Origin: Eledone cirrhosa
Lineage: Eukaryota
Assembly (NCBI GenBank): GCA_964016885.1
Contig: OZ024742.1
Coordinates: 176,948,001-177,012,000, forward strand
DNA: 64,000 bases
Direction: 5' to 3'
Shown here piece by piece: positions 1,119 through 48,960 of this stretch. A model generated the notes under the pieces. That model did no database searches. It saw only the letters and a list, made by a program, of their open reading frames with translations, and had not been told where the DNA came from. The translations under genes and the position numbers were made by a program. Numbering within the stretch: position 1 is the stretch's first letter; the number at the start of each line of letters is the position of its first letter.

Positions 1119-1216
1119 ACACACACACATATATATATATGTGTGTGTGTATGTGTATATATATGTGTGTGTGTGTATATATATGTATATTGTGAAGGCG
1201 TGTGGCTGATTCGCAA

Positions 1217-1942
1217 ACTAACTATGAACAAACCTTATTGTTCATAGTATATTATTCACCCTAGCGAATTTGGTCCCTTATAATTTGAACACATATATGT
1301 ATATATTTGTGTTTATCTCTCTTTATTTTATCAGATTATATTATACGGCTCGGAAAATATTTTCCTTGAGCTATTTTAATTGTAAGGGACTATTCTGAGT
1401 TTCTAACTCAATATATACTTTTGATAAATACAGCTCCTTGAATTTTGTAGAGCTTAATCATTGTCGAGTCAACCAGGCTGCTATTTTTAGCAGCATAAGT
1501 TTTTACGAGACACACTAGACTCTGAATGTCATGTGCGATATTTTCAACACGCGCTTCATTTAGTCTTCTAAGAAACTTAGAAGTGAAGGGTCTACTAATT
1601 TTTACATCTACCGAAGAGCAATAGAATTGGAAATTCCCTCACTTGATGCGAAACCGTTTTACTAAAGATGGTCTGGATGTTTCATATTTATCACGATCGG
1701 TTTGTACTTTTTCTTAATTTAATCTTTTAATTGAGTCTGGCAAACCGTATTGTTCATAGTTAGTATATTATTCACTGTAGCCAATTTGGTCCCTCATAAT
1801 TTGAACACATATATGTATATATTTGTGTTTATCTCTTTTTATTATATTAAATTATATTATACGGCTCGGAAAATATTTTCCTTGACCTATTTTAATTGTA
1901 AGGGACTATTATGAGTTTCTAACTCCATATATACTTTTGATA
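1217..1942 (+). mobile_element. Retrozyme-like partial tandem (about 1.4 units of a 512-bp monomer), family A
   Basis: 1229-1426 is repeated directly at 1741-1942; a hammerhead motif lies in the unique middle; ends in (TA)n; 15-nt inverted segment at the 5' junction. Confidence 0.7.
1604..1680 (+). ncRNA. Type I hammerhead ribozyme motif (U4C core variant), family A
   Basis: Stem I ACATCTA/TGGATGT, core CCGAAGA, stem II GCA..TGC, GAA, 8-bp stem III ACCGTTTT/AAGATGGT, GUC cleavage triplet. Confidence 0.7.
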
Positions 1943-2176
1943 TATATATAAATATATATATTTGTGTGTGTGTTTGTGTGTATGCTTGTGTGTGCAATCC
2001 CTCTCGTAGTTTTACCGTTTAGCCTACCTATTTCTTGATTTAAACTTTTAACGACATCATTTACTATTCTGTAGTTAGGATTAACACAGGTCGCTAACTT
2101 GATTCTTCAGAATTTCGTTTACTCTCGTTTAACATTAGAAATGCTATGGTACAATTCATACACCAATATTGCCCAT

Positions 2177-5049: not shown

Positions 5050-5410
5050 TTTTCTCTCTCTCCGTCTTGTTTCTTTCTCTCCGTCTTTTTCTAATCGTCC
5101 TTAACACTAAGACTTATTAAAATAATATAAACAATTCACTATCCAGATGGCATCCAAAAATAATGGTTGCATTTTAAAAGGGTATGTCAAAGCTTATTTG
5201 TAAAACTGTTATATATTGTATTTTGTCTGATGAAGGCATACCATGATTTAATTTGGTATCCCTGAAATATGTATAATGAAATAAATATGGTTTTATAAAT
5301 ATAGTTTCCATTTATGAATATCGTATATCTACTCCAAATATTGTCGAGTGCTTTATATCAGTTATAAAAATATTTACTTGTTGTACCCCAACAATTTTAA
5401 ATAGAACTTT

Positions 5411-17619: not shown

Positions 17620-20600
17620 TTAATTGTAAGTTGTGATGTTGCTGTTCCACTCATATTTTCTATTTAATTTTGGTTTTAATTCTTTTATGCTTACTGCCTC
17701 TGTAATTTGCCTAAACATTGCGTCTTTTCTGTGCGTGGATTCTATTTTTATTTCTATGCTCTCTAATCTACCCCTGTGTTCTATCTTAGCATGTTGGTAG
17801 AGCACAGATGATTCTTTATTATCTTGGAGGTCTCGCCAGTGTTCATTTATTCGTTCCCCTATACTACGAGCTGTCTCACCTATGTACACTATATTTTTGT
17901 TTCTACATTGTCCTTCAGTACATCTTATGCTATACACTACATTTCTAGTTTTACAGTTAATATGGGGGCTTATTTTACAGGTTATACATTTCTTATCTAT
18001 ACATGAGGGTCTTTGGAACGGGTATGTCTTGCTAATAAGTGTTTTTACGGAGGTACCTGGTCTTTCTACTATCTTAATATTGAGTTTATGTTTATTTAGG
18101 GCCCTTCTAAATTTGTAGGCTAGTTCGCCTCTAGGGGTTGTATTGATGAACATTACACTCTGGTATTTATTACTATCATACCATGAGTTTATTCTATTGG
18201 CCTTGTTCCTAGTTCTTTCTATTCTATTCCAAAATTTGCTCCTATACAAGGGGCAGGTCTCATTTATGTCATTATTTACCATTTTTTCCCATTTGGTTCT
18301 GGCTCCTCTATACACTCTGATTTCTTTCTCTCTGATTGTAGCCAGAGAACTGCATACGGTGGATGAAGTGTTGTATGTGTCTCTCTAGTTCTTCAGGGTT
18401 GCACATGCGGGACACGTTTCTCATCACCCGTACCAAATCCGCAATCAGTATGTTGATTTTGGTATGGTCCGAAACGGCCGAGTTTCGGTGGATCAGATGT
18501 TTGGAAGTCATGGGTTTGGCATAATGGGAACGGAGGATTTGTTTTTTGTTGTTAATGGTATCTAACCAGAGCTCTGTGTCTAGTACAGGTAATCGATGGT
18601 TGGGGTGTTTACTTGGGTAGTCTATAGTAACTCTAATGCTCTGGTAGATGGAGTTTGCTATTTGCTGGATGCTTTCCATTGTGTTTTTCTCTAGTTCCTG
18701 ACTGTTCTCTAGTGGGGGTGTCTTAACTACGATGTTTATATCATCAACGTAGCGGGAGTACATTATCAGGGTTAAGGGGTCTTCTAATTGTTCTTTAAGT
18801 TTAAGTTTAAGTCTACTGTCCCACCATGCCATGAATAAGTTAGCTATGTCACCTGCAATGCTAACACCAATGGCTGCTCCTTCCCCTTGGGCATATGGAA
18901 AAACATACCAAAATCAACATACTGATTGCGGATTTGGTACGGGTGATGAGAAATGTGTCCCGCGTGTGCAACCCAAAAGAACTAGAGAGACACATACAAC
19001 TTCTAGAGAGACACATGCTCCTTCCTCTTGGGCATATGTTTTTCCTTTAAATTTGAACATATGTTCCTTAAGGGTTAGTTTTATGCTGGCCCCTACCGCA
19101 TGTACAATCATTTTCTTCAGTTCATCGTGGTTTTCGTGTGTCCGTATGGCTCTGGTCCACCCGTTCCATCTATCTGTGTGGGTTTTCTTGGCCATTGAGG
19201 TAATGGTAGGTGGTCTGCCGCTTGCTGGTCTTGTAGGGCACAGGTTGCTAAGGTCATATGTATCTAGGAAATTATTACTATAGGTAAGTTTAAGTAGGAG
19301 TCCCAGCTCACTGGTATCAATCCCACGGAACTCAACATTGCTCTCACTGATCATTTCTACGCATTTCTCCACAGAAAAATCCACGTCAATAGATGGATAC
19401 AGGGACACAACATCCATACTACCTATTATGCAGTTTGTTAGGTCCCTAGATCGGTTACTCACGCCGATTCTGCTGAGGAGGTCCTCCGTGCTGTCACATA
19501 CATCTGGGAACATTTCGATGATGGGGCGTATGATCAGGGAGAGGAAGTAGGACAGTCTGTAGTTACTAGCAATGTGAGCTCCACAGACTGGCCGTGTTGG
19601 TGGTCCCGCGACAGGGTCACTGCCCGTTTTGTGGTCTTTTCGAAGCCCATACAACGCCGGCACGTCATTGTTCCAGGCCTGGAAGTTGTTGGCAGTCCTT
19701 TTGTTGGGCTGCATTATATTCGTCCACATCACCATATGGGCATTGAGGGCTTTTCTCTATCCTCATGCTCCTGTGGTGTTACTTCTCTTGTGTTAGTGAT
19801 GTGGGGTTGCATTGCCTGGATGTAGTTTGGCAGGCTGTCAACCGACATTCTGCCAGACTTGTCTGTTGGAAAGCATGCTATCTCTCCATTACGGGAGCGC
19901 TGCATGAGCTTACGCAAGCCATTTGCAGATTTTTCTCCCAGTTGCTGGGCCTCCATTCTATTATGCTTCTTGCTATACTGTTCTATAATATTTCTAAGTT
20001 CGGATCTAGCTATACTAAATTGTGCTTCTGTTTGTTCATCGACCTGCGACGGCAATTGCGTGCGTTTGTTAAATGTTAAATTCGTGGCGTGAACTCGTCG
20101 CAGGTCGAACGATTTATCGGAGGGATTATAAAAACTAGAGTTCCAGGCTGCTGCTTTATGTGTACTAGTGCTATTGTTATTGTTAGTTGTGTTGTTTCTA
20201 TTTCTATTTCCACCAACAGCCTCATGGTTGTTTCTATGTCTCTCATAATTACTCCTGTCTCTTTCCACTGGCTCATTGTTGTTATCTATCCTATTTTGTG
20301 TGTCTGTGTGTTCGTCTTGGTTATTTTCTTTGTCCTTAGTCTCCCTTCTACTTTTAATCCTATTACTTTCCCTTATTTCTGTGATTTCTGTGCTACTGTC
20401 ATTACTTGTTTTCTGTGTCTGTGTGTTTGTTAAGATTGGGGTGTTGGTGAGAGTCATTGAATGTGTGTGTGTTGTTGTTGTTGATGTGTGCTGTTGTTGA
20501 TGTGTGTTGTTGTTGTCTCCGTGTGTGTTATCGTTGTTGTGTGTGTTGTTATTGTTGTTTGTGTCTGCGTGTCTGTTGTTGTTGTTTCTGGGTATGTTAT

Positions 20601-21330
20601 TATTGTTGTTGTTGGTGTGTGTTTTGTTGTTATTGTTGTTATTGTTGTTTGTGTCTGTGTGTCTGTTGTTGTTGGGATGTGTGTTGTATATGTGTGTGCG
20701 TATATTGCTGTTTTTGTTTTTGAGGCTCCAGCGTAGTTTTGTAAATGATTTTTCTATTTCTGACAGACAACTAATCATATTTACCTTCTTGAATGTCGCA
20801 TACTTAGGTGGAAGTTGTAATACAGATAATTCATCTTCATCTATTATTGTGTTGCCGTATATATTTGTGTTGTTGTTGTTGTTGAACTCATCTGTTAATG
20901 AGGTGTCGGCCATATTTATACCGTCAATTTTGTCGGGATATCTATTGGTATTCTCTATAGTATCCTGATTTAGCTTTATCTGCTTAAGCCACTTTAGTTT
21001 CTTGTTAAAGTGCTTATCACATTCTTGAGTAATGTACTGTTCTTCAGGAGAGTATAAGGCTTATAAATATTAGGTTCTCACTTGGTGTGGTGATCCTAGC
21101 TATTTCTTGTATTAGGTTACGCTTGTGTTTTTCTTGATGACTTAATTCTCTATAGATCTTCTTTTTTATGTTTAGAATTAGTGTTCGTTTTAGCCTATCT
21201 GCTTGATTTTTGGTGAGTTGTAATCTTCTTACGTCGGTGTTGATGGTGTTGGTGTAAACTCGGGACGAGGCACATTCTTTAAGAGGTGTAGTTGTCGAGA
21301 TGTTATGGTTTTTCGTAGACAACGGAACAT
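17620..21330 (-). pseudogene. Penelope-like polyprotein, frameshifted
   Basis: TDKSG, LYGLRKDHK, DVVSLYPSI, RYVDDI, Cys linker CIDKKCITC, NVVY..VYIGET..ERINEH (GIY-YIG). Confidence 0.9.
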
Positions 21331-22974: not shown

Positions 22975-25300
22975 TTAAGTTATTTTATAGTGAGAGAATT
23001 TAGCTTTTAGTTTGTGGTTGCAGTATAATGATCGTTCAATTCTATCGTTAAGTAATTTGATTTTGGATTTTAATATGTAAAAGAGTTCAAGGTTACATAA
23101 CCTAGAGTACTTCAATCCACTCCGATATGCACTTGCGCTGGAAAGTATATCCCATTTTAAGGTGAACTGTTGGTTGCGTTCACGGAGTTGCCGGGTCTTG
23201 CTGGCGAGCGTGGTCACAAAACGGTGATTAAGATGTTTGATTGAGAATCGATGACGGTACCAGCGAGATTTAAACGAGGTGGTGGTAGATCCGATATAAT
23301 ACCATTTCTGGTCGTTCGATTCAACCGTGCATTGGTAAACAATGTTGGACTTTAGGCATTCATTCTTCAATGGACATCTTTCAGGTAGATGGCAGTTACA
23401 TTCTTTGTTGTGGATAGTGGTTATACCATGGATAGGTTGTGATAGCTGTACAGGTGGATTGTGTAATACCCGTCTCCCATTTAGTGGTTGGGACGCAGAT
23501 ATTACGTTCTGCCCGTCTGTTAATAACATATTTTGTTTTGTAGTGTTGTTTAATTGCTTTAAGTTACGTTTTTTATGTATGCTTCAATGTTTGGTGCCGT
23601 GGAGTATGATAGTCTAATAGTTTTAGAGTTCAGAATGTTGCTGTATTTATGGGAACTAGGGAAATGTTTGTTGATTAACTTAAAGAATGAAAGAGATAGT
23701 TTTGTACTAATCTAGGCATTAAAAATAGGATTATACCAGATATACTTTCTACAACGTGATTTATTTGGTGGTGATTTTCTATTATTAGTATGTCTGGTGG
23801 TACTGTGTGTGTGCGCTTGTATTTTAGTTCCCCGGTTACGTATTCCTTGATTTCGTGTAGAGCTATGTGTGTTATGGAGATTCCTATCAATGTATTCTAT
23901 TGTATCCCGGTGGTCGGCATTCCTTAATGCATTATTATAGTATTCAGCGTGTTCACTAAAAATATCAGATTTAGACGATAGGCGAGAGATTCTAAGAGAA
24001 ATACTCCGGGGAACCGATTTGATCATGGAGAGTGGGTGGTTTGAGTTAAAGTTAATATACGTAAGGTTCTCATTCATCTTGTGGAAGGGTCGTATCTGTT
24101 CGGTATTTAAATTAAGAGTTACGTCCAGAAAGTTTACTACTTTAAGATTGTATTCGTATGTTATTTTTAGACGCAGTCCACTAAAAGATTTTCTAATATT
24201 TTTCCGTAGCCTTTCAAGATTTTGGTTATTCAAGTTATTAACTAATAAAAGCCCGTCTTCTCTGTATATCCCCCCCCCCCCCTGTAGATTACTAAATTTA
24301 CATATGTAGTATGTGGGCTATGTAAATTCCCACAAGATCCGTGACCTCCGCTGAGACGTTGGAACCCATGGTAATGTCGAAGTTTGTGGGTCTGCCCAGT
24401 AGCAGTTATCAAACTTAATAATAGTTTTTCTAGCCTCGAGAATAATATTAATTTCGTCCTCCGTTAGGTCGGAGTTGACCTTAGCAAACGTAGGGCCTTA
24501 CATAAAGTGCTTGGTGACATTGAAGAGTAGTATTCGTCTATATCAAATTGTATAAACTTAGATTTATTCTTATTCTTAACGTTATTAAACCAGCGAATTG
24601 CTTCGCTAGTGTTGCCCCATAATTTAATTTCAATTTTCTGTTTCACTTGAGTTATTACTCTGTCAAATATATGTTTGCTAATTTTTCCTATGTCTGATTT
24701 AGAATGGCATATAAGTCTAATCTTAGGGTTAGAGTCAAAATTTACCTTATGGTCCTTCAGGTTGAAGGTGGGAGTAGCGGGTATAATCGGCTCGGTTCTA
24801 TCGTCTATCTTGAGATTCTTCACCACTTTGTATGCCTCGTTGTTAATATTTGTTAGCGTAGTTTCACTTGTTTTTCTATATTTTGTGTGTAGTTGATTGC
24901 GTATGAAGCTGTTGTATGTATCGATATCCATGGTATACACGTTAAAGGTCTTGTCAGCTTTCGCAACAATTCCATTGGTATTTTGCAGTCTTCGGAGTAG
25001 TGCTTTCATGTTGCTCTGCAGCTCATTATTTCTATGTTTGTTGAACTTAATGTTCATGGTCGTTTTGATTAAATCTTGTTCGAAAGCATCCAGATGAGGG
25101 TTTGTGGGTGGGTTTTTACATGATTTAAATCCATATGATTCAGACGAGTGACTGTCGCGTCACTTATCGAAATGGAAAGCTTTCCATCGTACACGCCGAA
25201 TGAAGTCATTATTGCGTGGAATCATACTAAGAATATATTCCCATTTGTTAGGTATAGGTATGTTTTTAAGTGACATACCTATATGATGCCGTGTGTCGGT
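22975..25300 (-). pseudogene. Naiad-like RT and GIY-YIG ORF, frameshifted
   Basis: SLKNIPIP N-terminus, ADKT, LKDHK..F..NPK.RLI, QFDIDEYY, FDITMGS, NFLDVT, IWYNP, CNC..CPL..C, IVY..YYIGST. Confidence 0.88.
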
Positions 25301-25527
25301 GTGGTTGCTCACCTGTGTAGGAGGCGATTATGAGGTATAGGATAAATCTAGATGTAGTAATCGTTAATTACTACACTGGATATGGTTGGCGTACGGTGAG
25401 AGGTTACTCTACAATTTATGGAAGAATTGTTGAAGAAACTTAGTTCCTGATCCTTCTGTATTCCGGAGTGTATATAAAGAATGAATAATAACAGGTAGAC
25501 ATCATAAAAAGGTAATTTATACCGTGG

Positions 25528-25637
25528 GCTTACAAATGTTTCCACGGTGGTACTACAGCCTAGTTATGCTATGTGCAAATTTACAACTATTTGCAGAACT
25601 CAAATATCCAATGCTGTGACCACTGTATCCTCAGAGC
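25528..25637 (-). ncRNA. Hammerhead with long stem II insertion, family E copy 2
   Basis: Minus strand GCT-CTGAGGA-TACAGTGGT CACAGC..GCTGT AGT ACCACCGTG-GAA-ACATTTGT-A-AGC. Confidence 0.72.
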
Positions 25638-26982
25638 AGAATGGTTAAAATGTACAATGTAAATACCCTTAAGTGGGGTTGTTGGAGAAGATAGAGTGGA
25701 AAAGGAGGAGAGAAAAGTAGGGGAGAGGGGGAGAGAGAGAAAGATATGCAGGGGTTGGAGAAATAGGAGAGAGTGGTTTGTAGTTATCTTAATCAAAATG
25801 TTGTGGTAGGAGCTTCATTATACTAGTTACTTTTGGAGAGATGCGTTGATAGTTAAGGTCGGAATTATTCATTGCCCCAGAGGGCAGGTTCATATATGTT
25901 GAGAGTGAGGGAGGTAGGCCAAAGGCGAGAGAGAGAGAGTGTAATGGATGTAGAGAGAGAGATAGAGAGGGGACAGACGAAGTCTGTGTGGTGAGTGAAC
26001 TTTGTGTTCGTAGTAGTAATCTGCGAATTGCATTGAGTTCCATTTATAGTGATAAGCAGTGCATTGTCTTGTAGTGTGGGGGAAGGGAAGGTGGTTAGCT
26101 AGAAAGCGATGTTATAGTTACGGGTTCGAATGTTAAGTTATTTTATAGTGAGAGAATTTAGCTTTTAGTTTGTGGATGCATTATAATGATCGTTCAATTC
26201 TATCGTTAAGTAGTTTGTTTGGGGATTTTAATATGTAAAAGAGTTGGAGGTTACATAACCTAGAGTACTTCAATCCACTCCCATATGCACTTGCGCTGGA
26301 AAGTATATTCCAATTTAAGGTGAACTGTTTATTGCGTTCACGGAGTTGCCAGGTCTTGTTGGCGAGCGTGGTCACAAAACGGTGATTAGGATGTTTGATT
26401 GAGAATCGATGACGGTACCAGCGAGATTTAAACGAGGTGGTGGTAGATCCGATATAATACCATTTCTGGTCGTTCGATTCAACCGTGCATTGGTAAACAA
26501 TGTTGGATTTTAGGCATTCATTCTTCAATGGACATCTTTCAGGTAGATGGCAGTTACATTCTTTGTTGTGGGTAGCGGGTATACCATGGATAGTTTGTGA
26601 TAGCAATACAGGTGGATTGTGTAATACCCGTCTCCCATTTAGTGGTTGGGAGGCAGATATTACGTTCTGCCCGTCTGTTAATAAAATATTTTGTTTTGTA
26701 TTGTTGTTTAATTGCTTTAAGTTAAGTTTTTTTATGTATGCTTCAAGGTTTGGTGCCATGGAGTATGATAGTCTAATAGTTTTAGAGTTCAGAATTTTGC
26801 TGTATTTATGGGAACTAGGGAAATGTTTGTTGATTAACTTAAAGAATGAAAGAGATAGTTTTGTACTAATCGAGGCATTAAAAATAGGATTATACCAGAT
26901 ATACTTTCTACAACGTGATTTATTTGGTGGTGATTTTTTATTATTAGTATGTCTGGTGGTACTGTGTGTGTACGCTTTCAAA

Positions 26983-27115
<133 letters not shown>

Positions 27116-35471: not shown

Positions 35472-36371
35472 CTGTATAATAAACAATACAATATAATTAC
35501 CTCATTACCAGAGGTTTCCCGAATAAGACGAATACGAAAAACGTCCTCATTCGTTCGTCGAACAAGGCAATTTAAAGCAGTGAAATATTTGAAAAATCTC
35601 CTCAAGAAAGACAAGAGTTTAACGGGCAAAAAATATATAAATAAAAGTAATGCAAGAGATATATAAAAAAATATATATATAGTTAGGGTATGTGTATATG
35701 TATGTATATACACTCACAAATGTACATATGTGTGTATGTACAAATGCATGTGTATGGTGAAAGTGTGTGCGTAAGTACATATATGAGGGCAAGTATATTT
35801 GTGTATTTGTGACCACAAATACGTATATGAGTTGAAAAAGAAATTGTAAGATAATATAGTTAACACGCATCCAGATACAGGCATTAAATACACATACGAA
35901 TATGAAAGCACGCATATAAACACACACACACCCGCGCGGTCACTTATATGCGGAAGATAAAGAGGGAAGGGAGTGTAATAGTAAAAAGAAGTGTCATTCG
36001 CGATATATGTATACAAATGATACAATATATGAGAATGAAAAAATTGTTTTAAATCAAAGAGAAAGTAATCAATTAACACTAGCGGAAAGAAAACAAACAT
36101 AGGTACGCACGTACACACACACATATATATATAAAAAAAATATTTATACACACAAATACGTACAGACAAAAGCGCATGTCTCATACTCATGCCGCTAAAA
36201 ATAGCAGCTGAGATTATGAGACTAAAGTTTAGCTCTACATACGGAGACGAAAATATCATAGATTGAGTTATAAACTCAAAATAGTCTTTTACAATTAAAT
36301 AGCTCAAAGATGGGAAACTTTCTGAGCCGTGTAATATAATTGGATATATGAAGTGTGTGAACACAGATATA

Positions 36372-36614
36372 AGTATATATGTGTTCCAATTGCAAATGAC
36401 CAAGTTAGCTAGGTTGAAAAAATGGCTTTCACTTAATAAATCTTGCGGAACAAATTTTGGGTCTTTCCGAGCATCAAAGGCTATTGCCCGATATAGATTT
36501 GTTATTTTTATTGATTTATTACTTTAAATCGAGTCAGACAAACAATATTGTTTTAAATTAGTATTTTTTCAACCTCGCTAACTTGGTCATTTCCAATTGG
36601 AACACGTGTATACT
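36372..36614. mobile_element. MITE with terminal inverted repeats of about 50 bp (Tc1/mariner-like TA context)
   Basis: GTGTTCCAATTGCAAATGACCAAGTTAGCTAGGTTGAAAAAAT (36381-36423) mirrored at 36563-36605 with 2 mismatches. Confidence 0.8.
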
Positions 36615-45231: not shown

Positions 45232-48200
45232 TATTCCTTGAATCTCAGTCATTGATGTTGGTTAACTGGAAAGTCCGTTGGATTGAATATCAAGCCACTA
45301 CCTGCAGCCTCAGATATTCAGGACGTATCGGAGGGTTCTTGCCGTTCCAAGCAAGCATGCCTTTTGAAGCGTTCCAAAAAGCGTGAAGGGGCCGATTTTC
45401 TTTAACCATCCCTGGAAACCTTTGGAGATAGTCCCCAGTGCGCCTATGACAATCGGGATCACTTTGACTTCATGGCAGTTCCAAATCCTTTTCACCTCCC
45501 ACTTTAGGTCCTGGTATCGGTTAATTTTCTCCCTCTCCTTCTCTTGCACTCTCGTGTCGAACGGGCAGGCCACATCCACAATCAGGCACGATCTTTTTTC
45601 TTTGTCCACAACCACCAGGTCAGGTCTATTGTGTTCCAGTTTTTTGTCCGTCTGTATCCTAAAATCCCACAGCACCTTCACCTGACTGTTCTCCATCACC
45701 GCCTCTGGCCTATGCTCATACCATTTCTCAGAATGTGGTAGATTGTTTACTTTGCACAGGTGCCAGTGGATCACCCTGCCCATCACATCGTGTCTCCAGC
45801 CCTTATAGTGGGTCTGGGCTAGGTGTTTACACTCGGACACAATGTGAGCCACAGTCTCCTCTCTCTCTCCACAGATCCTGCACAGTGGGCTAGCCTCCTC
45901 CTTGTAGATATGGTGCTTCAACCACTTCGTTTTGAGGGCCTGCTCCTGCGCAGCCATTAGCATTCCTTCTGTAGCCTTTTTGAGGTCTCCTCTTCTCAAC
46001 CAGTTCCATGTCTGTGGATCTCTAAATTCAGTTTTCTCAAAGAAGGTACTATGAAGGGATTTTCCCTTAAGGCTGCTCTTCCTCCTTGATGTTATTTCCT
46101 CCTTGGGTATCCCCTGGCCTACTCTCCCCTCCTTCAGTACAGCTCTGAGCATTGGCTCCTTACTATAGGTCACGTATTTGTATAGGTTGTTTTTCTCCAT
46201 CTGAACACAGTCCTCTATGCTGATAAGACCTCTTCCACCCTCAGATCTCCTTAGGTAGAGTCTATCGACATCACTCCTCTTGTGGAACATGTTGTAGATA
46301 GTCAATAGCTTCCTAGTCTTCCTATCCATTTCTTTTTGTTCAGCAACATTCCATCTCAGAATTCCCGCACTGTACCTAATAATAGACACAGCTCGGGAAT
46401 TTACTGCGCTTATGGCATTTCTGCTGTTCAGATGTGACTTCAATACGCTCCTTACTCTCCGAATGTATTCAGTTCTTAACAATTCCTTCATTTTTTTGTT
46501 CTTTATGCCATCAGCCTCCAGAACGCCCAAATACTTGTATCCTTCCTCAGAGTCAATTTCCTTTATCATCTCACCTGTTGGTATCTGGATCCCGTTACTT
46601 CTGCTCAACCTACCCCTCCTCATCACAATGACTCCACATTTACCAATACCAAACTGCATACATATATCACTGCTGAAAATACGGACAGTGTCAACAAGCA
46701 CATCCAACTCCTTCTCACTTTTCCCGAAGAGCTTAAGATCGTCCATGAAGAGGAGGTGATTGATGGTAAGCTCTCCCCTTCCCAACTTGTATCCTGCTCT
46801 CACTTTTCGCAGCATAATGGTCAAGGGCATCAGGGCAAGGACAAACAACAGAGGGGACAGGCTATCTCCCTGGAAGATACCTCTCTTGATCTTCACGCTT
46901 CCCAAGGATACTCCAGTTGATGTCAACTCTGTCTCCCAGGACCCCATACTCCTGCCCAGCAACTCTCTGATGTTATCTGCCACCCTGAAGATCTCCAGGC
47001 TTTTGGTGATCCAGGAATGAGGCACCATGTCAAATGCCTTTCTGTAGTCTATCCATCCCATGGCAAGATCAGTGTGTCTCCTCCTGCAATTCCCCATTAC
47101 CATCTTATCAATAAGCAACTGGTCCTTTGTACCACGTGACTTCTTTCGGCATCCTTTCTGTTCGTCCGGCAACAAGTTGTTTGTGTGGAGGTGATGGTAG
47201 ATTTCCTCAGACACAATGCTCGTCAACAGTTTCCACATTACGGGCAGACATGTGATAGGTCTATAGTTGGTAACATCATTACCCTTGATTCGGTCTTTCA
47301 TTATCAGAACTGTGGTACCTTTTGTCAACCACTCTGGCACCTCACCCGACACCAAGCAGTCATTGAACATGGCCGTCAGCTTCGGGTGGAGGGATGTTAA
47401 ATGTTTAATCCAATACCCCTGCACACCATCTGGGCCTGGTGATTTCCAGTTGGTTAGTTTTTTGGCTTGCCCCTTAAGAGTTTCAACTGTGATACTCAAA
47501 TCAGTCTGTTGCTGTGCCTGCTCACCGATCTCCCTCTGTACTGTCTCAATCCACCCTGCCTGGGCATTGTGTCTAACATCCTGCTCCCATATTCCTCTCC
47601 AGAATGTTTTAGCTTGTTCCGCCCCAGGGATCAAGTCGGTGCCTCTTTCTTTCCCCTCAAGCTGTCCAAACAGCATCTTCTGGTTGTTGTCGAACATGCG
47701 GTTCTGTTTATACTGACTGACTCTGTTCTCGTATCGCCTGATTTTGGCACTCTTTGCTACAATGCGTTGCTTCAATTCCTCTATGATAATATTTAGCTTT
47801 TTACTCCTAGTTTTGTATTTTATTTCCAGTCTATTTTTAGTGCCTATGTTTTTTAGTGTCCCATTCAGTAGTGACTCAAGCTTTCCTATGTCATTTCTCA
47901 TTTCCCCGATTTGCCCACTCAGTCGCTTCTTCCACCACGGCTCTGCTCTTTCTTGTCTGTTGTTTCCTCTCGCTTTTATACCAAGTAGTTTCCTCACCGT
48001 ATTTGCTGTTGCTTTGAGGATATTGTTGCACTGGTGAAGACTCCTCGCCTCAAGGTATGGGATGACTTTGTTTACCTTAGCTGTTGTTTCTTTTAACTTT
48101 TTCCTGTCTACAAATCTTAGGTTCATAGGTCTCCCACTATCATTGTTCAACTCATCTACCACTAAATTTAGGATGTCAACCGAATCTTGTCCTAGCCCGT

Positions 48201-48960
48201 CAGCATTCATCTCCTCAGTGGCCGTATCTCTGTTCCAGGTATTATTTATCTCAGTATTCAGATCATTGTCTGCTTCGGGTGGTTCCTCCGCTCTCAGGAC
48301 CTCCTCACCTTCATTTCCCGCCGGCTCGCTTGTCTGGCATACTACACCCGCCATCTCCAAGCCATTCTCTCTGCTCAGTTCCTCCAGTTCCAGCTCGCTT
48401 ATCCACCCATTAGTTCTTATTACCCGAGCCTGCCCGGCCAATTTTTGTTCATCTAATTTAAATAAACCAATCTCGTTCCAGATGTTATGCATCCGTCTCC
48501 TGTAGCCCCTCTCCTTGGGGTTACTTTTCAGGTAGCATTGCATAACAGTTCTATTCAATTCTTTCGTCCAGTTGGTTCTGGCCCCTTTCCTTCTTCTTCT
48601 TCCTCCAACATCAGCAGTATTTCGTTGACAGTCAGGTTCCTGCTGCTGAGCCAGGGGGCACCTGTTGGGTGAGAGTCTGTCACATGACGTTCTAGTCTCC
48701 ATTTCACCGTTATTCGAACTGTTTATGTTCGATATTTAAACACTCTTATCGAGGATTGGCGAATGTATGTTTACATAGCCATCTGTGGATCCGCCATCCC
48801 ACTTGGCCCTTGTGTGGCATTATCACCACGCTGTATACGGACACACATAAACAAACAAACACACGGGCAGAAAGGGCCCCAAAAATGAATAAGCATAAGT
48901 TTCATTGTAATGTAGTATTCGAATGTCTGACTTAGTTTTTGTTTTTTAAGTTTTACTTTT
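45232..48960 (-). mobile_element. Dong/R4-clade non-LTR retrotransposon, apparently intact; 5' boundary uncertain
   Basis: Single long ORF, short 3' UTR ending in (TAA)n, 5' UTR partly shared with 43040-43330. Confidence 0.93.
45310..48702 (-). CDS. 1130-aa retrotransposon polyprotein: N-terminal domain, reverse transcriptase, CCHC finger, restriction-like endonuclease
   Basis: Uninterrupted ORF with KSPGPDG, YRPITCL, WIDYRKAFD, GIFQGDSLSP, LFMDDLK, YLGV, CRIC..HIVSEC, RHD, RPDLVV..IVDVACP and KINRY. Confidence 0.95.
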   Translation of the reverse strand: METRTSCDRLSPNRCPLAQQQEPDCQRNTADVGGRRRRKGARTNWTKELNRTVMQCYLKSNPKERGYRRRMHNIWNEIGLFKLDEQKLAGQARVIRTNGWISELELEELSRENGLEMAGVVCQTSEPAGNEGEEVLRAEEPPEADNDLNTEINNTWNRDTATEEMNADGLGQDSVDILNLVVDELNNDSGRPMNLRFVDRKKLKETTAKVNKVIPYLEARSLHQCNNILKATANTVRKLLGIKARGNNRQERAEPWWKKRLSGQIGEMRNDIGKLESLLNGTLKNIGTKNRLEIKYKTRSKKLNIIIEELKQRIVAKSAKIRRYENRVSQYKQNRMFDNNQKMLFGQLEGKERGTDLIPGAEQAKTFWRGIWEQDVRHNAQAGWIETVQREIGEQAQQQTDLSITVETLKGQAKKLTNWKSPGPDGVQGYWIKHLTSLHPKLTAMFNDCLVSGEVPEWLTKGTTVLIMKDRIKGNDVTNYRPITCLPVMWKLLTSIVSEEIYHHLHTNNLLPDEQKGCRKKSRGTKDQLLIDKMVMGNCRRRHTDLAMGWIDYRKAFDMVPHSWITKSLEIFRVADNIRELLGRSMGSWETELTSTGVSLGSVKIKRGIFQGDSLSPLLFVLALMPLTIMLRKVRAGYKLGRGELTINHLLFMDDLKLFGKSEKELDVLVDTVRIFSSDICMQFGIGKCGVIVMRRGRLSRSNGIQIPTGEMIKEIDSEEGYKYLGVLEADGIKNKKMKELLRTEYIRRVRSVLKSHLNSRNAISAVNSRAVSIIRYSAGILRWNVAEQKEMDRKTRKLLTIYNMFHKRSDVDRLYLRRSEGGRGLISIEDCVQMEKNNLYKYVTYSKEPMLRAVLKEGRVGQGIPKEEITSRRKSSLKGKSLHSTFFEKTEFRDPQTWNWLRRGDLKKATEGMLMAAQEQALKTKWLKHHIYKEEASPLCRICGEREETVAHIVSECKHLAQTHYKGWRHDVMGRVIHWHLCKVNNLPHSEKWYEHRPEAVMENSQVKVLWDFRIQTDKKLEHNRPDLVVVDKEKRSCLIVDVACPFDTRVQEKEREKINRYQDLKWEVKRIWNCHEVKVIPIVIGALGTISKGFQGWLKKIGPFTLFGTLQKACLLGTARTLRYVLNI

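Follow-up and report, generated by a model that had tools for sequence, protein, structure and literature searches.

A 518-nt non-coding hammerhead repeat of Eledone cirrhosa, probably mobilized by Penelope-like elements and likely copied from circular RNA

Near the start of a 64,000-nt stretch of the Eledone cirrhosa genome (the window), two direct repeats flank a single hammerhead motif on an insert longer than one repeat unit. Which machinery placed such a copy in the genome, and was its template a circle? An initial annotation, made from the letters alone, described the locus as a 1.4-mer of a 512-bp monomer, left by reverse transcription of a circular RNA. We find that it is an old, mutated, non-coding copy of a many-copy mobile repeat. 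We propose that this 518-nt element is mobilized by a Penelope-like element (PLE) and likely copied from circular RNA, a reading which, based on sequence comparison, we hold at a probability of roughly 0.6.

The boundaries first assigned to the insert, 1217 to 1942, proved right, and its features are the following (window coordinates):

1191..1216, plus strand: 5' flank outside the element, inferred to be an internally deleted SINE-like head, abutting a (TA/TG)n microsatellite
1217..1231, minus strand: 15-nt inverted arm at the 5' junction, with a 3-nt overlap (CAA) with the forward copy
1229..1430, plus strand: partial unit on the upstream side, covering unit positions ~311-518; the second pass, truncated at its 5' end and with a 4-nt gap near its start
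1346..1351, plus strand: CGGCTC motif 3' of site A in the upstream copy, read from the sequence
1431..1942, plus strand: one full non-coding unit, running from the junction between units to site B, the fixed 3' end
1431..1436, plus strand: junction motif CAGCTC (CGGCTC in the family), which comes after site B in the template
1604..1680, plus strand: type I hammerhead, from descriptor scan and family covariation
1855..1867, plus strand: site A (~1857), the alternative fixed 3' end, with CGGCTC at 1862-1867
1940..1946, plus strand: site B, the fixed 3' end TTTTGA/TA, which merges with the TA-repeat target

The direct repeats (1229-1430 and 1741-1946) are 91.7% identical over 206 columns, in line with the ~200-bp repeats originally described on either side of the single hammerhead. 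Their offset is 512 nt over the first ~20 nt and 516 nt thereafter, reflecting the 4-nt gap in the upstream copy. The family unit, taken from the unit consensuses of subfamilies A1 and A2, measures 518 nt, and the insert from 1229 to 1942 (714 nt) spans 1.38 units; the 1.4-mer thus stands, with a monomer of 518 instead of 512 nt. The inverted arm is an exact reverse complement of 1750-1764, as had been noted. No stop-free frame of at least 150 aa overlaps 1217-1942, so the copy is non-coding, and no target-site duplication could be read in the microsatellite flanks. The two passes of the window copy share 7 variants and differ at 13 of 172 sites, and from these differences we conclude that the copy is old.

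The hammerhead consists of a 7-bp stem I (1604-1610/1674-1680), the core CCGAAGA (1611-1617) with a U4C change at 1612, a 3-bp stem II (1618-1620/1647-1649), GAAA at 1650-1653, an 8-bp stem III with two G-U pairs (1653-1660/1665-1672) and GUC at 1671-1673, with the predicted cut after 1673. The long stem III and the GUC site agree with the first description, as does the distinction from the two other hammerheads of the window, at 5227 (plus strand) and 15158 (minus strand), which belong to a different family and have a minimal palindromic stem III of 3 bp. An Rfam scan of the window at E<=1 listed no hammerhead, only microsatellite-driven matches, and the hammerhead is the MFE fold, although its stability does not exceed that of shuffles (z -0.4 to -0.6). 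The assignment therefore rests on the descriptor scan and on covariation within the family. In an alignment of 69 of the 175 distinct hammerheads recovered from fetched loci, 80% of the cells in the three stems are paired, and compensatory swaps are clear at two pairs of stem I and one of stem III; none of 500 shuffles reached the observed covariation score, a control that kinship among the sequences inflates. Loops II and III (window 1627-1634 and 1658-1666; UUGGUAA/UUACCAA) are complementary over 5-7 nt, which is kept in 81% of cells, with covariation not above shuffles. Their pairing possibly forms an alternative, inactive fold.

The core CUGA(U/A/C)GA is found in 133 of the 175 family hammerheads (as CUGAAGA, CUGACGA or CUGAUGA), GUC in 138, and a fully intact core, by regular expression, in 99. 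The family core is thus of the kind anticipated for the consensus. CCGAAGA occurs in 1/175, the window copy, and the U4C change is therefore private to it. Such a change cripples hammerhead cleavage. With a stem III of 5-8 bp or more, the family hammerhead is predicted to work as a monomer. The window copy has a single ribozyme, and restoring U4 would not enable it to free a monomer, for which two cleavages are needed; because it holds one ribozyme with a mutated core, we predict that it is a dead end.

A search of the 3.0-Gb genome returned 3,502 candidate copies of the insert (40 were scored). They are dispersed, which upholds the multi-copy retroelement first proposed and speaks against a single-copy locus or a simple local duplication. 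The window copy belongs to the older subfamily A1, whose unit consensus agrees with that of A2 at 431 of 509 aligned positions. Two sister families, B and C, were first met beside GIY-YIG loci. Family B has a 534-nt unit (1,218 candidates), a GUA cut site and a hammerhead with a long stem III; family C has a 549-nt unit (2,680 candidates). Both are young (93-99% identity), homologous to the A unit along its full length (alignment scores of 186-517 against shuffled maxima below 85) and near-identical to each other over ~35 nt in stem III. The units are low in GC (32-34%), and those of A1, A2, B and C fold as circles more stably than shuffles (15 approximate shuffles each). The sister families were studied at the following loci:

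Family B: L355 (G000:C3:274494800-274499200), L356-L359 and L325-L354
Family C: L398 (G000:C3:4975740-4979186) and L371-L400

The window also contains a distant head-to-head relative of the 518-nt unit, ~72% identical, at 36236-36612.

The ends of the copies were examined with two motifs. A 25-nt motif of the 3' end has 111 exact matches in the genome, of which 100 were analyzed, and 86 of these copies end within 8 nt of the motif, at site B (window 1942-1944). Copies ending there lie nearly all in TA repeats and are 37-772 nt long; eight copies of the 3'-motif set are at least one unit long. The junction motif gave 366 matches, mostly in A2, and 91 junctions were analyzed at 90 of the 100 places listed. 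Site A is the 3' end of 37 of these 91 copies and site B that of 26; the other 28 end elsewhere, and the upstream partial copies vary from 18 to 576 nt. Sites A and B lie ~86 nt apart and neither is the GUC cut site. The copies are therefore not freely permuted, as had been expected of copies of a circle: the 5' ends do vary, while the 3' ends are fixed at two sites. Fixed LTR-like boundaries are not seen either, since the fixation concerns the 3' ends only. Of 30 junction loci, 29 continue into the non-coding unit, and the remaining one (L223) has an internal deletion.

Three apparent patterns were discarded. The copies with the best scores seemed to have a hard 5' limit a little downstream of the cut, and starts seemed to pile up at the cut, both of which came from selection and BLAST end effects; L215, considered as a 1.7-mer or an autonomous continuation, consists of two pieces parted by another repeat. 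Directly after site B at this locus (L215 1020-1200) comes a young, unrelated repeat (96-99% identity, 1,553 candidates).

An inverted 5' arm is present in 61 of the 91 junction-bearing copies, extending to the family the Penelope-type inversion that had been recognized in the window. The outward end of 47 of the 61 arms falls at site A or B, at a threshold that admits chance matches, and this would fit priming from both target strands. The arm of the window copy stops at neither site, and we therefore regard it as a fold-back or as what remains of a longer inverted arm.

Judged by these copies, the element combines two fixed 3' ends with truncated 5' ends, partial tandems, inversions and insertion into TA repeats, which is the PLE pattern described by Craig et al. 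2021 (PMC8557442). PLEs are reported to share the partial tandems, 5' truncation, inverted 5' copies and AT-rich or (TA)n targets as well as two fixed 3' ends downstream of the hammerhead (PMC11167929, PMC8557442, PMC4209133). The two ends of the PLE tail are described as internal start sites of reverse transcription in vitro, with AT-rich targets (Frangieh et al. 2024, PMC11167929). We are thus highly confident that we are dealing with a non-autonomous hammerhead retroelement of the PLE type, whichever template it uses. In contrast to autonomous PLEs, which carry reverse transcriptase and GIY-YIG domains between pLTRs, it has no reverse transcriptase or endonuclease frame. Its tail measures 64-86 nt against 30-40 nt given for PLEs, and its stem III is long where that of metazoan PLEs is described as minimal and palindromic; long helix III is reported for fungal and protist PLEs (PMC11167929, PMC8557442, PMC4209133).

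Another feature that sets the family apart from the PLEs compared is a common motif after both start sites. Each unit of A1, A2, B and C contains exactly two C(G/T)GCTC motifs, one on the 3' side of each site at a distance of ~2-6 bases that is blurred by TA microhomology. From this placement, we infer that the motif may direct the initiation of reverse transcription. An old internal duplication could account for part of the likeness between the two motif sites. At site B, the motif forms the first bases of the next unit, so that beyond a full-length copy it would be present only on a circle or a multimer.

A 1.4-mer by itself is an ordinary PLE partial tandem and not specific to a circle, and on this point the inference drawn from the length of the window copy falls short. 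What stands of it is the common template. The passes within one insertion differ by 7.7%, compared to 12.4% between insertions, and shared non-consensus variants per site amount to 3.3% within and 1.2% between (33 rows, with one locus, L021/L224, counted twice). The downstream copy of the same insertion is the single closest match in only 12 of the 33 cases. The sequence differences indicate that the two passes of one insertion come from one template.

Passage through a second cut site was seen in 4 of the 91 copies, with 5.5 expected from the stopping rate, so that there appears to be no barrier. The longest copy in the A family, L234, reaches 1.95 units. Genome-wide, the exact A2 pattern for crossing the second cut gave 12 matches at 11 loci, all below two units, and two crossing loci, L407 and L409, hold two intact cores; the corresponding exact-motif test for A1 gave no match, but with its control giving only one it has no power. 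Family B includes insertions of 3.5, 3.1, 2.9 and 2.6 units, most of which end at the fixed 3' site, and family C one of 4.0 units; these were drawn from the top-scoring copies, so that their lengths say nothing about frequency. Crossings of the cut site are free of indels in 44/44 cases in B and 40/41 in C (counts for the old subfamilies, confounded by subfamily length variants, were left out). There is no sign that stopping rises after a full turn: in the first 90 nt past the junction, counted by hand, 18 of 37 copies ending at site A stop, compared to 14 of 26 ending at site B. A long array was absent from the A2 exact-motif scan (12 matches, one pair at unit spacing) and from the scored B and C candidates, a partial scan of an assembly that may miss arrays. 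We favor a circular template because of the missing barrier at the second cut, the seamless crossings, the 3.5-4-mers of the sister families and the lack of a long array in these scans. Weighing against it are the steady stopping rate past a full turn, the closest matches that fall to the own downstream copy in only 12 of 33 cases and the five longest B multimers, whose units have no private variant in common.

Linear, uncut multi-unit transcripts of tandem source loci, likewise mobilized by a PLE and with the ribozyme only trimming the transcripts, would likewise be expected to give fixed 3' ends, cut sites without seams and passes that are nearly identical, and families B and C do have multimers of the size of such a source (3.5-4 units). 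For the anole PLE, the one examined in vitro, ribozyme cleavage is reported as dispensable and uncut RNA as the main template (PMC11167929). We nevertheless consider this origin unlikely. Each round of copying from such transcripts could only keep or lose length, yet four subfamilies and families of different ages make copies of more than one unit, and the partial scans of A2, B and C gave no long array that could serve as the source.

Linear monomers cut by the ribozyme could also mimic a circle, if the reverse transcriptase, on reaching the 5' end of one monomer, jumped to the 3' end of that monomer or of a second one. First-pass stops are mildly enriched near the cut, with 6 stops at 255-283 nt (~1.0 per 100 nt, against 0.45 before and 0.32 after), an interval picked after the data had been seen, and the copy at L083 starts at the cut site. 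Because of this excess, we propose that part of the templates were probably linear cut RNAs. Template jumps often leave inserted or missing bases at the junction. In the young families, 84 of the 85 crossings of the cut site show neither, and jumps between molecules would dilute the sharing of variants within insertions. As a general explanation, we therefore regard template jumping as improbable.

That the repeat is a tandem duplication of local origin or a pair of fixed LTRs, with multimers arising later by unequal crossing-over, is largely refuted and in our view highly improbable: the 200-nt direct repeats could recombine and the two passes age in an LTR-like manner, but there are thousands of dispersed candidates with repeats of 18-576 nt, the units of the C 4.0-mer differ from each other at 7-12 of 547 positions, about as much as from other loci, so that this multimer is about as old as its insertion, and the five longest B multimers (2.2-3.5 units) have no private variant common to their units, as late duplication of an aged unit would give. 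Five two-arm B insertions do carry a private variant common to both arms, and 31 of 64 B units are nearest to a unit of their own insertion.

Under the favored reading of a circular template, the cycle would begin with the transcription of rare source loci with two complete ribozymes. Double self-cleavage would free the 518-nt monomer, and a host ligase would close it into a circle. A Penelope-like reverse transcriptase/GIY-YIG protein, likely acting in trans, would nick a TA repeat and begin reverse transcription at an internal position of the RNA, at site A or site B, each of which lies a few bases 5' of C(G/T)GCTC. Copying would break off at a random point, in most cases within the first turn, sometimes after 1.4 turns, as in the window copy, and rarely after 2-4 turns, and these longest copies would remake source loci with two ribozymes. 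The inverted 5' arm would represent a second priming event on the other target strand. More tentatively, and slightly short of even odds, we suggest that the families form a long-lived, recently active clade of ORF-less circles that is propagated by rolling-circle, target-primed reverse transcription of PLEs, with starts marked by C(G/T)GCTC and up to four turns.

To find a partner, we scanned 40 GIY-YIG loci (150 listed; 10,596 candidates) and the window by BLAST and with profiles. None of the 40 loci held an autonomous PLE whose terminus matches that of the family, and a comparison of 610 flanks gave only other repeats and sister mini-families among the matches listed. Intact frames with reverse transcriptase or GIY-YIG matches exist in the genome, with no link to the family, and the broken Penelope-like frames of the window have no sequence link to the hammerhead element:

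L111 3006-5822, minus strand: intact frame of 938 aa with reverse transcriptase and GIY-YIG matches
L113 1075-4365, plus strand: intact frame of 1096 aa with a reverse transcriptase match (retrieved as a GIY-YIG match)
Window 17620-21060, minus strand: broken Penelope-like frame with a weak GIY-YIG match
Window 22975-27083, minus strand: broken Penelope-like frame
Window 45310-48735, minus strand: intact frame of 1141 aa, which we take to be a non-LTR reverse transcriptase protein

Elements of this kind are already known from mussels, corals and amphibians. Metazoan non-LTR retrozymes, as described by Cervera and de la Pena 2020 (PMC7229834), likewise have a non-coding head-to-tail unit with one type I hammerhead per unit, a low GC content and PLEs in the same genome, and for them, too, a circle and rolling-circle copying by PLE enzymes have been proposed (bioRxiv 10.64898/2026.07.22.740005). 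At least two complete ribozymes in head-to-tail order occur in the family (L407, L409 and the B and C multimers); the window copy has one. The units of 518-549 nt exceed the 170-400 nt given as typical (PMC7229834) and fall within the 51-972 nt of a 2026 survey (bioRxiv 10.64898/2026.07.22.740005). As 518 nt falls within the surveyed range, a unit size of about 150-400 nt is descriptive and not a defining limit. Stem III has 5-8 bp or more in our family, compared to 1-2 bp, and its copies are mostly dispersed, 5'-truncated and shorter than a unit, whereas metazoan retrozymes are described as dimers to long arrays (PMC7229834). Circular RNAs have been demonstrated for retrozymes of mussel, coral and axolotl (PMC7229834), whereas the circles of the present family are predicted from genome sequence.

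Chlamys PLEs such as MRC1 resemble the family as non-autonomous PLE derivatives with pLTRs and multicopy head-to-tail insertions (PMC8557442). MRC1, in contrast, comes from an alga and belongs to a clade in which canonical hammerheads are reported to be lacking, and its 3' end is described as resembling an identified autonomous family (PMC8557442), for which we found no counterpart among the 40 GIY-YIG loci. Plant LTR retrozymes differ in their type III hammerhead, fixed-length LTRs and 4-bp target duplication, as opposed to the type I hammerhead and the repeats of 18-576 nt seen here. The literature covered, mostly outside subscription papers and outside Repbase, held no account of this family, of a cephalopod retrozyme or of the start motif.

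The family joins two proposals that stand apart in the papers covered, namely that retrozymes ride the PLE machinery, as argued for the PLE origin of non-LTR retrozymes (Li, Clavereau and Pollet, bioRxiv 10.64898/2026.07.22.740005), and that PLE copies longer than one unit come from circular RNA, as proposed already in 2014 (Cervera and de la Pena, PMC4209133). It brings the PLE footprint of two internal starts, inversions and TA targets together with multi-turn copies in one non-coding element, and the candidate start signal and young sister families provide assayable material. If the circular reading is true, families B and C would be well suited to testing whether circular templates explain the partial tandems of Penelope elements.

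At L122 4888-5560, a family B copy is joined head-to-head, without a spacer, to the 3' end of another repeat with a minimal hammerhead. This junction could be the product of two RNAs primed at one target.
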